Part shown: piece by piece, positions 22,317-36,782 of the stretch
Numbering within the stretch: position 1 is the first letter of the stretch
Layout: the number at the start of each line of letters is the position of its first letter
Source: an uncultured Desulfobacteraceae bacterium
GTDB lineage: Bacteria > Desulfobacterota > Desulfobacteria > Desulfobacterales > SURF-15
Direction: 5' to 3'
Assembly (NCBI GenBank): GCA_964433795.1
Contig: CAYSUA010000001.1
Location: 1 to 36,782, forward strand
DNA: 36,782 nt
Notes under the pieces: generated by a model
Told to the model about the DNA's origin: nothing
Seen by the model: only the letters and a program-made list of their open reading frames with translations
Database searches by the model: none
Made by a program: the position numbers and the translations under genes

Positions 22317-22390
22317 GGTGTTGCTCCTCAAATGTGTGTGTTAACAAACCAACCTGGACAAGCCGGTTGGAGCGAAGCGATTCAATAAGT

Positions 22391-22593
22391 CCCGATTTAT
22401 CGGGGAAATTCCAAATCACAAATATCAAATTCCAAACAAATCACAATGACCGAAATTCAAAATCCCAAACATGCTCATGACATTGAAAAAATAAACATAT
22501 CAAAAATGTTTTGGTCATTGGATATTGTAATTTGTTATTTATTTGTAATTTGGTGCTTGTTATTTGAAATTTTAATCCCGATTTCATCGGGAT
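22391..22593. repeat. Long AT-rich imperfect palindrome capped by GC hairpins, between ddl and the dCMP-deaminase operon
   Basis: The terminal mini-hairpins are 'cccgatttatcgggg' (22391-22405) and 'atcccgatttcatcgggat' (22575-22593). The arm 'aaattccaaatcacaaatatcaaattccaaacaaatcacaatgaccgaaa' matches the reverse complement of 'ttttggtcattggatattgtaatttgttatttatttgtaatttggtgcttgttatttgaaatttt'. Confidence 0.75.
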
Positions 22594-22669
22594 GTATTAG
22601 TTTTTTACTTAAGATGCAAAGAAATGACAATTTAGACTCTAATAGTCATGCGGCTAAATGTAATCGGAG

Positions 22670-25111: not shown

Positions 25112-25334
25112 GATTGAAAATATATATGTTAGCCGCAGACACACACAGACATACGCAGACAATAAAGATTTTTTGCCTGGGCGACTTGCCCAGGCAAAAG
25201 CTTCAAATGCCTTTCAGGCATAAGCGTAATTATTATCGCGAAGCGATTGACTGTTTTTGCCTCCGCAAGTCGCGGAGGCAAAAGGTCCGTGTCCGTCTGT
25301 GTGTGTCGAGCGAACAAAGTGAGCGGGCGGCTAA
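25112..25334 (+). repeat. Structured MITE-like repeat, copy A (206-bp core 25129-25334 plus 16-nt leader)
   Basis: The core starts 'ttagccgcagacacacacagacatacgcagac' and ends 'gtccgtgtccgtctgtgtgtgtcgagcg...gcggctaa'. This gives an 8-bp terminal inverted repeat (TTAGCCGC/GCGGCTAA) and complementary CA/GT-rich arms. It contains four internal hairpins and is near-identical to 32492-32763 and 36746-36782. Confidence 0.85.
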
Positions 25335-25497
25335 TAAAAAACGTTTCTCTAAGAATCAATATCTAACATGCTTGAATCATAAAGATTTTTTTCAACTTCA
25401 AATCAATTAATACCAACTAAATCGGAGAAGAACCAAAGTTAAAAGTCGAAGAAGCTGGTAGCTTAAGACTGAACTCCCAGGGGTCATTTGAGTCAAT

Positions 25498-27237
25498 ATG
25501 TTGTTAAAAGAGACTGAAATTTTGATTGTGGACTGCCAGGCAACCGGAGCAAAACCTCAAAACGGGCATCTGATTGAAATCGGTTGGATGCGGTGTCAGC
25601 GGGGTCAAAAGGGTATTTTGACACCAACAGCGAGTAAGACTCTTTTGATTCAGCTACCGGAAGATGTCCATATTCCGAAACAGGTTGAACGAGTGACCGG
25701 GATTTTATCTGAGGATTTGTCTGATTCCATTCCCCTGGCTGATGCCTGGGCAAGACTGTTAAAAACGGCTCAAAAGACGGCGCAGGCCAATGAAACTTTT
25801 CGATGCCCGACAATCATCCATTTTGCTAGGTATGAGACACCTTTTCTACGGTTTTTGCACCGTCAGTTTGCACCGAACGCTCCGTTTCCATTTGAGATTG
25901 TTTGCACTCATGAGATTGTTAAAAGACTAGTGCCGGGGCTCCCGAGAAAGGGCCTGAGGGCGGTTGCCGGCTATTTCGGCTTCAGTACTTCGGAAAAAAG
26001 ACGATGCGAGCATCATTTGAAAGCCACCCTTTCCATATGGAACCGGGAAATGGAATTGTTGGAGCAGGACCATGACATCCAAACCCTTGATGACCTTATA
26101 TTGTGGCTTGAGCGCACGGAGCAAAACCAGAAACAGTGCCGTGTATATCCCATGGATCGGGAATTGCGTCTTAAACTGCCGGATGTTCCGGGGGTATACC
26201 GTTTCTTGAGATCGAACGGAGATTTGCTCTATATCGGTAAGGCAAAATCATTGAAAAGCCGCGTTAACAGCTACTTTCAGCAAAACCGAAAGCAGCCGGA
26301 GCACGTGCTGGAAATGCTGTCTCAAGCCTGCGACATCGATTATACGGACACAGACTCGGCCGTTGAAGCCGCTGTACTCGAAACGGACGAGATCAAGAGG
26401 CATTCACCGCCGTATAATATCGCATTGAAGCATGGAAACCGTGAAATCGGATTCAGCACAAGAGACTTCGTAAACCAAGCGCTGAAGCCGAATAAAACCA
26501 AACCCCTCGGCCCCCTTCCTTCACCGGGCACCTTGGTTCCGCTTTCCTTATTGAGCGAATTGCCGGCGTCTCGACAAGCACAAGCGGAAGACGTTTCCGC
26601 TGCATTGAATATCCCGGACGAATATGCTCCCGCCCTTCTTGTGTTCAGAGAGGGATTAGCCGAGTTTTTTCAAAGACACGAAACCGAGTTGAGATTCAAT
26701 TCGGCGTATCGGAATTTTATCCGGTTGGGCGCCATGTTTTGGAAAAAAGGGCTGGAGGAGTCGGATGAGGCTATTTTGGAAAAGGATGATCTGATAGAAG
26801 AAGGAATCGATGAGATCGAAGATGAAGAATGGGAGTGGACTCCGGATGCCGTGGCAAACGCCGTTGAAGGTGTTGTGCGTAGATGCGTGCATCTGATTCG
26901 CCGGGCACGATGGTTTTGCTTGATATCCGAATCGTCCCTGGTTTGGGAAAGAGGGTATAAGGAAAAGGCTGGTCGAAATTTTTTAGTATTCCACAAGGGG
27001 AAACTGGTGGAGAATGGGGTTATGAATGTTGGGGAGGATATACCCGTTCCATCCGGTTATAAGAGAAGCACGTTATTGAGACAGCAAAGCTTTGATGTGG
27101 CGACTTACGACCGCATGCGGGTGGTCACCACCGAAATCAGAAGACTGCTTTCCGAAGGGAGAGATATTGAACTCTGTCTGAGACCCAACACGGTGTTGAA
27201 GAACAAATCGCTTAAACGGTTTTTACAATGGGTTTAG
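25498..27237 (+). CDS. DnaQ-like (DEDD-fold) exonuclease domain fused to a GIY-YIG (UvrC/Cho-like) nuclease domain, plus a C-terminal region of about 270 aa with unknown function
   Basis: The N-terminus 'ILIVDCQATGAKPQNGHLIEIGW' and 'IIHFARYETPFLRFL' align by eye to Exo I/II of epsilon-like exonucleases. The GIY-YIG motifs are 'PGVYRFLRSNGDLLYIGKAKSLKSRVNSYF' and 'ETDEIKRHSPPYN'. Confidence 0.7.
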   Translation: MLLKETEILIVDCQATGAKPQNGHLIEIGWMRCQRGQKGILTPTASKTLLIQLPEDVHIPKQVERVTGILSEDLSDSIPLADAWARLLKTAQKTAQANETFRCPTIIHFARYETPFLRFLHRQFAPNAPFPFEIVCTHEIVKRLVPGLPRKGLRAVAGYFGFSTSEKRRCEHHLKATLSIWNREMELLEQDHDIQTLDDLILWLERTEQNQKQCRVYPMDRELRLKLPDVPGVYRFLRSNGDLLYIGKAKSLKSRVNSYFQQNRKQPEHVLEMLSQACDIDYTDTDSAVEAAVLETDEIKRHSPPYNIALKHGNREIGFSTRDFVNQALKPNKTKPLGPLPSPGTLVPLSLLSELPASRQAQAEDVSAALNIPDEYAPALLVFREGLAEFFQRHETELRFNSAYRNFIRLGAMFWKKGLEESDEAILEKDDLIEEGIDEIEDEEWEWTPDAVANAVEGVVRRCVHLIRRARWFCLISESSLVWERGYKEKAGRNFLVFHKGKLVENGVMNVGEDIPVPSGYKRSTLLRQQSFDVATYDRMRVVTTEIRRLLSEGRDIELCLRPNTVLKNKSLKRFLQWV

Positions 27238-32460: not shown

Positions 32461-32491
32461 GATTAAACCTCTCTTTATTAACAGAAGATTA

Positions 32492-32763
32492 TTAGCCGCA
32501 GACACACACAGACATACGCAGACAATAAAGATTTTTGCCTGGGCGACCCGTCTTCGCCTGAGGCTTCGCCGCGGCAAGCCTTGCCCAGGCAAAAGTTTCA
32601 AATGCCTTTCAGGCATAAGCGTAATTATTATCGCGAAGCGATTGACTGTTTTTGCCTCCGCAAGTCGCGGAGGCAAAAGGTCCGTGTCCGTCTGTGTGTG
32701 TCGAGCGAACAACTTGTCGGGTCGTAGCTCGCAGAGCGAAGCCTGAAGTGAGCGGGCGGCTAA
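32492..32763 (+). repeat. Structured MITE-like repeat, copy B (272 bp; copy A plus two insertions)
   Basis: Its termini and internal sequence match copy A. Outside two insertions (32548-32580 and 32713-32746) I saw only two differences: a T5 versus T6 run and one c/t change. Confidence 0.85.
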
Positions 32764-32844
32764 TTAATAGAGTGATGTTGATAAGCCGTGTATTTACATT
32801 TTAAGTCGGTTCCACCAACCAAATTGGAGAAGAACCAAGAAAAT

Positions 32845-36224: not shown

Positions 36225-36530
36225 ATGGTAGAAGTTACAGTATCAGCAACAGAACAGATTTCTGAATATTTCAAAGGCAAGGATATCCAGCCCGTTCGGG
36301 TTTTCCTGAATGAGGGCGGGTGAGGCGGACCATCGCTTGGCTTGGTTCTGGATGAACCCAAAGACGACGACAGTGTATTCGATGTTGAAGGTTTTCAGTA
36401 TATTATCAACAAAGATCTGATGGAAAAAGCCCAACCCATTAAAATCGATTTCCTGCAGATGGGTTTCAAAATTGATTCCGGCCTCGAGTTTGGATCCGAT
36501 ACCGGTTGCGGCGGCTGCTCCTGCGGCTAA
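36225..36530 (+). CDS. HesB/IscA-like A-type Fe-S scaffold protein with in-frame TGA (candidate selenocysteine, codon 33)
   Basis: ATG 36225 is preceded by the strong RBS aaggagga (36213-36220). A single frame is open to TAA 36528-36530 except for TGA 36321-36323. The translation is ...VRVFLNEGG-U-GGPSLGLVLDEP...GCGGCSCG, and the TGA falls at the position of the first conserved cluster-ligand Cys of IscA/HesB ('GGCxG'). The track only lists the downstream fragment 36342..36530. Confidence 0.72.
36324..36360 (+). promoter_or_regulatory. Candidate bacterial SECIS hairpin(s) downstream of TGA 36321
   Basis: There are two mutually exclusive stems. The first pairs GGACCA (36327-36332) with UGGUUC (36343-36348) around a 10-nt loop 'ucgcuuggcu'. 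The second pairs GGUUC (36344-36348) with GAACC (36354-36358) around the loop 'uggau'. Both loops contain G/U and start within 6-23 nt of the UGA. No folding energy was computed. Confidence 0.45.
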
Positions 36531-36554: not shown

Positions 36555-36597
36555 ATCAGGCGGTACATTCGGTAGAGTGTGCCGCCTGATTTTTATT
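36555..36597 (+). terminator. Rho-independent terminator after the HesB-like gene
   Basis: The stem 'atcaggcgg' (36555-36563) pairs with 'ccgcctgat' (36582-36590) and is followed by 'ttttatt'. Confidence 0.7.
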
Positions 36598-36728: not shown

Positions 36729-36782
36729 GATTGAAAATATATATTTTAGCCGCAGACACACACAGACATACGCAGACAATAA
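36729..36782 (+). repeat. Structured MITE-like repeat, copy C (truncated by the window end)
   Basis: The 16-nt leader 'gattgaaaatatatat' plus 'ttagccgcagacacacacagacatacgcagacaataa' is identical to the start of copy A. Confidence 0.8.

Follow-up and report, generated by a model that had tools for sequence, protein, structure and literature searches.

Correia elements (CREE/NEMIS) of Neisseria are non-coding sequences of about 100–270 bp that are bounded by inverted repeats, occur in high copy number in intergenic DNA near gene starts and can form long hairpins once transcribed. A TA duplication is typical of them and, to our knowledge, no classical transposase has been assigned to them. The repeat described here is like Correia elements in size, non-coding character, inverted ends, copy number, proximity to gene starts and hairpin folding, but it is unrelated to them in sequence and host phylum, its ends consist of three units phased at 10 bp and followed by conserved GAC-loop hairpins, and its family includes gene-bearing versions that encode a GxxExxY protein. 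Comparison with REP/BIME sequences and their RAYT (Y1) partners gives a similar picture: both are dispersed palindromic units that build mosaics, and each comes with a low-copy protein gene framed by units that also occur throughout the genome, whereas the partner here is a predicted PD-(D/E)XK protein rather than an HUH/Y1 enzyme and the units are longer and composite. The host genome has six Y1-type genes (PF01797 matches), none with adjoining termini of the repeat. MITEs that arise from insertion sequences by internal deletion show the same relation between a gene-bearing form and a shorter gene-less form with both ends kept, although the gene here is not a known transposase and no target-site duplication was detected.

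Two further systems share the combination of a small gene and a confined site. Intervening sequences of 23S rRNA hold a small ORF in a long inverted-repeat stem and are suspected to be selfish; they and the elements studied here both enclose an ORF of about 120 aa in long inverted repeats that would pair into an RNase III-type stem, but our elements lie between protein-coding genes rather than in rRNA and their ORF belongs to a different family. Free-standing homing endonuclease genes are known from phages, and I-Ssp6803I is a homing enzyme of the PD-(D/E)XK type. Like homing genes, the genes described below are small nuclease genes (here predicted) wedged between conserved genes with minimal spacers. 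We know of no homing gene with flanking phased-unit inverted repeats or hundreds of gene-less copies, both of which accompany the present cassettes.

The window, a stretch of 36,782 nt, is contig 1 of the metagenome-assembled genome G000 (6.1 Mb in 803 contigs, 48% GC, 88.5% completeness, 6.3% contamination). A sequence-only reading had reported three near-identical copies of a structured repeat of 206–272 bp in it, and a sequence check and repeat listing place copy A at 25129–25334, copy B at 32492–32763 and copy C at 36746–36782, exactly as it had them, in the same (direct) orientation within 12 kb and between protein-coding genes (Table 1). Its anatomical description also stands, including the 8-bp inverted ends TTAGCCGC/GCGGCTAA, the CA-rich left and GT-rich right arms, four internal hairpins, all of which form in the minimum-energy fold, a 16-nt leader common to A and C and absent from B, and a window in which no transposase was found. 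Its count and dimensions needed revision: the three copies are real, but the repeated unit is larger, extending in copy A through a tail to 25436, and the core has matches at 63 loci rather than three. All ORFs that overlap the 206–272-bp element are spurious extensions, so the element is non-coding.

Table 1. Features of the three repeat copies in the window (positions are those of the window)
Feature	Position	Strand	Description
Leader of copy A	25112–25128	+	GATTGAAAATATATATG, repeated along with the core; repeat family D2
Left terminal array T, copy A	25129–25160	+	TTAGCCGC, then three ACAGAC/GCAGAC units at 10-bp spacing
Hairpin 1, copy A	25171–25199	+	12-bp stem, loop GACTT
Hairpin 2, copy A	25207–25221	+	ATGCCT TTC AGGCAT
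Centre of copy A, 13 nt	25222–25234	+	Position of the GxxExxY gene in full-size relatives (compared with C447, L185 and L174)
Hairpin 3, copy A	25235–25247	+	ATCGC GAA GCGAT, includes GCGAAGC
Hairpin 4, copy A	25255–25283	+	Loop AAGTC; mirror of hairpin 1, with GACTT on the opposite strand
Right terminal array T′, copy A (GT-rich arm)	25284–25334	+	19-nt bulge at 25308–25326 before the closing GCGGCTAA
Tail module of copy A	25335–25436	+	About 100 nt, repeated with the core, about 20 copies; terminal box ACCAACTAAATCGGAGAAGAACC
Copy B	32492–32763	+	Architecture as in copy A
Mini-module insert 1	32547–32579	+	About 33 nt, GTCTTCGCC...GCCGCGGCAAGC; located in hairpin 1 of copy B, within its GAC loop
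Mini-module insert 2	32713–32746	−	34 nt, in the bulge of the right arm of copy B; a diverged relative of insert 1 in inverted orientation, kinship judged by eye
Variant tail of copy B	32764–32838	+	Same terminal box, 32814–32838
Copy C	36729–36782	+	Leader and first 37 nt of the core, then contig end

In the folded form of copy A the ends pair as a closing stem (TTAGCCGC and AGACACACACAGAC with GTCTGTGTGTGTC...GCGGCTAA) with the four hairpins inside. Folded as RNA, copy A reaches a predicted −102.6 kcal/mol (z −10.3), and folded as DNA −65.1 kcal/mol (z −11.7); 0/200 dinucleotide-preserving shuffles were as stable. Copy B is longer than A solely because it carries two small inserts of 33–34 nt. 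Its sequence is identical in nine other assemblies, and its left end lies 28 nt (32464–32491) from the GTG start (32461–32463) of a minus-strand DUF1786 gene. Copy C is complete in a longer public assembly (L231), where the element measures about 240 nt and is followed by a tail that stops 5 nt upstream of the ATG of the next gene; the tail of copy A faces the start of a DnaQ-like/GIY-YIG gene at 25498. Leaders reach up to about 80 nt in other copies (flanks of 93 termini).

The repeat is dispersed across its host genome and beyond. Genome-wide BLASTN with the core, the check that the earlier reading had proposed, found matches at 63 loci on more than 50 contigs, of which 13 are full length, 30 span 60 nt or more of the core and 18 reach the end of a contig; about 27 additional blastn matches are restricted to the first 35–60 nt or so. 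The shared terminus consists of TTAGCC(A/G)C followed by ACAGAC units at 10-bp intervals, and this ACAGAC terminus is common to other repeat families in G000, including a minimal hairpin of 80 nt and a one-ended unit of 110 nt. With one mismatch allowed, a 22-mer of the terminus occurs 91 times in G000 and is present in 12/30 relatives (29 times in G015 and 8, 7, 6 and 6 times in four others), against none for a reversed-pattern control in every genome. An exact-pattern scan with one genome per species found the terminus on at least 107 contigs, and terminus-bearing metagenome-assembled genomes among the matches listed belong to Desulfobacterales, Desulfatiglandales, Syntrophobacterales, SEEP-SRB2, Ca. 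Desulfatibia, Ca. Desulfacyla and similar groups. Inverted terminus pairs 59–450 bp apart are common in the other terminus-bearing genomes, and across genomes we counted 41 clean pairs with spacings of 59–800 bp.

Copies have A/T-rich flanks and can lie close to gene starts. Copy B is one of 19/136 termini that lie 14–35 nt from an outward-facing ribosome-binding site and start codon, against a control value of 20% over an interval of 150 nt, which scales to roughly 3% for an interval of the size of 14–35 nt. Tails mostly face a gene start 10–115 nt away, and the orientation of the element relative to neighbouring genes varies, A being co-directional and B opposite. Dispersed hairpin repeats of this kind fragment metagenome assemblies, as the 18 family loci at contig ends illustrate, and repeats beside start codons can alter expression.

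The ends of these elements have a conserved anatomy that is symmetrical at the level of DNA. Reading inward from either end, the order of parts is a three-unit array, a large GAC-loop hairpin and a mini-hairpin with a GAA/TTC triloop, whose TTC loop is GAA on the opposite strand and which in copy A includes GCGAAGC, a sequence known for its exceptionally stable mini-hairpin in DNA. Directly after the array, 100/255 ends from the host and other genomes have a hairpin with a stem of 8 bp or more, compared with 8% of random windows. By manual count about 60/100 of these end hairpins have loops that start with GAC, most commonly GACTT, GACAT or GACCT, compared with 3 of about 240 hairpins from random windows, and a GAA/TTC triloop on a 4-bp stem is present at 56 ends, compared with 1.6% of controls. 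The GAC loop is borne by 39 distinct stems, and outer stem positions, which were not used in selecting the hairpins, are 85–97% paired with 2–4 pair types each; the end hairpins are thus maintained by structure. At either end the conserved GAC loops are found on the strand that reads inward, giving the DNA a two-fold symmetry. Since the loops are on opposite strands at the two ends, one transcript would show two different loops, and the symmetry is that of transposon ends and not of a single RNA.

The repeat is a gene-less member of a hairpin-rich element family that is widespread in Desulfobacterota and whose full form carries a GxxExxY gene. The GxxExxY gene is the sole protein-coding gene that we found between terminus pairs (L100 and L103 of other genomes, and C447:4100–4680 of G000). 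The C447 element has ATTGAAAATCAATTA at the leader position and runs through an array, hairpin 1 (GACCT loop), hairpin 2 (TTC loop), the gene, hairpin 3 (GCGAAGC), hairpin 4, an extra hairpin and an inverted array. Gene-bearing elements of this layout come from four taxonomic families (C447 in the host genome and L185, L174 and L171 elsewhere). In C447, L185 and L174 the gene takes the place of the 13 nt that separate hairpins 2 and 3 in copy A; L174 also has the bulged right-end variant of copy A, and L171 has a second right end in direct orientation after the gene. By genome, this order and gene position are found in G018 and G012 besides G000, with a variant in G020. Since full-size relatives carry the gene at the very centre that is 13 nt long in copy A, we interpret the window copies as gene-less, MITE-like derivatives.

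The encoded protein is a predicted nuclease. The C447 protein of 128 aa scores 146.8 bits with TIGR04256 (cut-off 35) and 142.5 bits with PF13366, and its PD-(D/E)XK motif is intact, with E27, D66, E76 and K78 invariant in 28 homologues. For a structure model of mediocre quality (pLDDT 67.6) the best fold matches are Cas4 SSO0001 and archaeal Hjc resolvases, which are PD-(D/E)XK nucleases of about the same length; each match is weak (E > 0.001). A sequence search of solved structures with the protein returned no relative, a PADLOC search gave faint similarity to the Cas4-like core only, and a PHROGs search gave nothing. The function of PDDEXK_3 was entered as 'Unknown' in a superfamily survey of 2012 (PMC3424549), and in the literature that we searched we found neither these repeats nor the surroundings of GxxExxY genes described.

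Association with phased arrays extends well beyond the host lineage. Comparable arrays, each of about three phased units, frame GxxExxY genes from at least six phyla. In 30 relatives, as well as in plasmid records of Bacteroides, Bernardetia, Prevotella, Persicobacter, Treponema, Gemmatirosa, Sphingomonas and a fusobacterium, the units are phased at 9–10 bp and mostly inverted, sometimes direct, and their cores include CACAGAG, CACGGAT, CGCGGAT, CACAAAG, CACGAA(A/G), CGCGAAG and CAGGATT. Plasmid-borne GxxExxY genes with flanking arrays come from Bacteroides, Bernardetia, Gemmatirosa and Prevotella, and three plasmid records (L224, NZ_OY725952.1; L226, NZ_CP147018.1; L230, NZ_CP155749.1) have phased CACAGAG or CGCGAAG units in the flanks. 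Related arrays, with CGCAGAT-type or TAATCAGCG-type units, also flank the other three GxxExxY genes of G000. Exact arrays of at least three units phased at 8–12 bp were found in the flanks of 16/36 GxxExxY genes, compared with 1.1% of 643 control genes. The genes sit tightly between housekeeping genes of the same orientation, separated from them by a few to about 60 nt; in Bacteroides, for example, the neighbours are radA and the gene of an FAD-dependent protein, in Bernardetia they are ade and a mannose-1-phosphate guanylyltransferase gene, and in Sphingomonas fabD and fabG. To judge from the searchable literature, this link between GxxExxY genes and phased-unit inverted repeats in several phyla has not been described before.

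Unit type also follows the protein. On the GxxExxY protein tree unit type requires 13 changes, compared with a mean of 23.7 after shuffling (0/200 shuffles as low), a result that reflects clustering rather than co-evolution as such, since near relatives share unit labels. The CRCAGAC group forms one clade (support 90/86), as does the CAGGATT group (100/98), which unites a Bacteroidota plasmid with three families of Desulfobacterales. A GxxExxY gene is present in 11/12 terminus-bearing and 6/18 terminus-free genomes (P = 0.0024, Fisher's exact test); this test and the tree shuffles overstate the case, since related genomes are not independent. Two terminus-bearing genomes depart from the pattern: in G015, with 29 termini, no GxxExxY gene of the matching clade was found (the genome is 83% complete), and in G002, with 2 termini, no GxxExxY gene was found.

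These observations suggest that the 206–272-bp repeat is probably a non-coding, MITE-like derivative of a small selfish cassette whose full version encodes the 128-aa GxxExxY (PDDEXK_3) PD-(D/E)XK nuclease. The sequence-only reading had offered a non-autonomous MITE-like element as one of two options. Its copies are shorter than about 600 bp, non-coding, numerous and bounded by terminal inverted repeats, and dispersal and gene-bearing relatives fit that option as well; the part that did not hold is the customary partner and trace, as the partner is not a known transposase and no target duplication or polymorphic site was found. The transposase with matching ends that the same reading asked for likewise has only a partial counterpart: no known transposase was recovered, while relatives with the same ends and hairpin order encode the GxxExxY protein, a predicted nuclease for which a transposase role is putative.

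The best-supported mechanism, which we infer from comparing the elements, is one in which the GxxExxY nuclease drives the spread of the repeats. The phased units and GAC-loop hairpins would be DNA-level recognition or cleavage sites for the cassette nuclease, which would act in trans on gene-less copies, and elements would have spread into A/T-rich spacers beside ribosome-binding sites. Cut-and-paste movement, homing-like break-induced copying and resolution of extruded cruciforms are candidates for the chemistry. More tentatively, GxxExxY proteins at large (PDDEXK_3, TIGR04256; many thousands of small bacterial proteins) could be the mobility nucleases of undescribed tiny selfish cassettes, each bounded by nuclease-read arrays of about three helically phased 7-mers whose type co-evolves with the protein; in Desulfobacterota such cassettes would be the source of large families of gene-less hairpin repeats and of a 33-nt module that inserts at GAC sites. 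We consider this wider proposal possible rather than probable. If true, it would supply a bench-testable hypothesis of function for the GxxExxY/PDDEXK_3 family. In one phylum GxxExxY genes are accompanied by hundreds of gene-less copies, and the association also suggests a possible new route of repeat proliferation, one that would rely on no DDE or HUH transposase.

Of the competing explanations, the one that fares best, though we regard it as unlikely, is a structural or regulatory element that the host keeps for its effect at the RNA level, as for REP/BIME or Correia sequences. The 30-bp terminal stem and the hairpins, once co-transcribed, would serve as RNase III sites or as stabilisers or insulators of mRNA segments, and the link to GxxExxY would be merely historical. 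Such a role would accord with a fold that is very stable on either strand and with the placement of termini and tails beside gene starts, but it is harder to square with two different loops per transcript, with orientations that vary relative to neighbouring genes, and with the finding of no promoter-like site and weak terminator-like matches. Population data also bear on it. Near-identity of the copies had been read as a sign of recent mobility or homogenisation, with polymorphic insertion sites as a corollary, yet the three tested sites are fixed in the assemblies recovered: every metagenome contig retrieved by neighbour protein (21, 17 and 16 contigs in the three look-ups) carries the element at its site, be it copy A, copy B or the gene-bearing one on C447, with no empty site among them, and no synteny at sites A, B and C was found in genomes of the same genus or family. 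Fixation counts in favour of a host-kept element. An RNA-level role in RNase III processing or mRNA stabilisation is possible alongside a selfish origin, with which it is compatible.

We think it improbable that the repeat is a conventional MITE moved by a DDE transposase, for instance of the IS630/Tc1 type that duplicates TA, with the enzyme missing from an incomplete assembly and GxxExxY a passenger. The assembly is indeed 88.5% complete and breaks at repeats, and the invariant TTA...TAA at the ends could conceal a TA duplication. It is the only remaining duplication candidate and is indistinguishable from the inverted repeat itself: a search for variable target duplications of 2–5 nt at 7 boundary offsets found none, with observed matches equal to those of shuffled pairings. 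On the side of the enzyme, the single DDE_3 element of G000, which is IS630-like (C732), has unrelated ends, termini do not flank Y1 transposase genes, no ORF or protein family recurs inward of the 136 termini, and distant terminus pairs enclose no transposase, only ordinary genes (OmpA-like, LolA-like and YebC). GxxExxY, by comparison, is the sole gene found between terminus pairs and recurs there in several genomes, and flanking unit type tracks its phylogeny, which would be unexpected for a passenger.

A multi-copy gene for a discrete structured RNA of about 200 nt, the other option of the sequence-only reading, has very little probability left. The strong fold and compensatory stem changes across genomes would suit an RNA gene, but a search of the window against Rfam gave no match at gathering thresholds (the best score, for AniS, is 21.5 bits against a gathering score of 50) and nothing usable at permissive ones, no promoter-like site was found, orientation varies, and the element is near-palindromic with two-fold DNA symmetry in its loops. 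Moreover, the centre accepts a gene of 390 bp, AT-rich fillers of about 100 nt and small inserts, which fits a pair of element ends better than an RNA core. Simple local duplication, the fallback of the earlier reading to which three direct copies within 12 kb lent some colour, is refuted by matches at 63 loci on more than 50 contigs and by the spread of the terminus and related elements through many other genomes. The TTAGCC/GGCTAA ends also brought integron attC sites to mind, which we rejected since the copies are singly dispersed and differ in internal anatomy.

The unit amplified most recently may have been larger than the part between the terminal arrays. The tail and the long leader have related boxes at their outer edges, in inverted orientation to each other: ACCAACTAAATYGGAGAAGA at the end of the tail (reverse complement of the end, GGTTCTTCTCCGATTTAGTTGG) and GGATCATCTCCAAAAGAGTTGG on the leader. 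By manual count, 17/22 positions match between the leader box and the reverse-complemented tail end. G000 has 41 such tail or leader boxes (in the window at 25412–25436 and 32814–32838; elsewhere, for example, at C64:6486 and on C222, C548 and C578). The composite at C68:2959–3366 is the sole one with both ends readable and has TTAATTAA on both flanks. Since the copies nearest A share leader and tail with inverted boxes, the last burst may have copied a composite of about 330–400 bp made up of leader, core and tail, and since this unit extends past the terminal arrays, the arrays may not have been the working ends of that burst. About 10 boxes stand alone as 30-nt hairpins (GGATCATCTCCAAAAGAGTTGGAGTGATCC).

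The inserts of copy B belong to a mini-module with a strong preference of site. It measures 31–34 nt (GTCTTCGCC...GCCGCGGCA(A/G)G), has about 20 good copies in G000 (besides the window on C5, C16, C51, C141, C235, C326, C445, C447, C483, C555, C559, C576 and C684) and is also present in elements of other genomes. Nearly all copies lie directly after ...CAGAC in terminal arrays or in a GAC loop, so that the mini-module behaves like a site-specific insert within the larger repeat. These positions suggest that GAC may be a site at which the DNA is opened.

Several other repeats of the host genome resemble parts of the element. A unit of about 110 nt with the ACAGAC terminus at one end only occurs in G000 at C4:9251, C65:271 and C426:4440, on C58, C83, C199 and C406, and at about 25 more places; it closes with AAAAAGGAAATTCCTATACTATCAAGTTA, a module that also trails short two-ended hairpin elements (C61, C133 and C232). 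Low-copy three-unit phased arrays with other cores (TTAGGACG, TTAGACCC and CACTTTA) lie at C275:5640–5800, C179:9050 and C539:2230, those of C275 as an inverted pair about 110 nt apart. No gene was found near these arrays, which may represent further element types.

Three smaller observations concern the window itself. At site A, ATCCCGATTAATCGGGAT replaces hairpin 3 (ATCGCGAAGCGAT; 25235–25247) in other assemblies of the locus (L194–L198 and L200) while the flanks are otherwise identical, which reflects either gene conversion between copies or chimeric assembly across them. Another palindromic repeat, AT-rich and unrelated to the first, occupies 22355–22640, between an ORF ending at 22331 and ddl, and has 58 blastn matches in the host genome and dozens in G001, a genome of the same genus. 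Just upstream of copy C, at about 36225–36530 on the plus strand, a small ORF with an in-frame TGA (...NEGG*GGPSLG...) and the end CGGCSCG may encode a selenocysteine-containing protein, and a terminator-like hairpin lies downstream of it at about 36556–36595.
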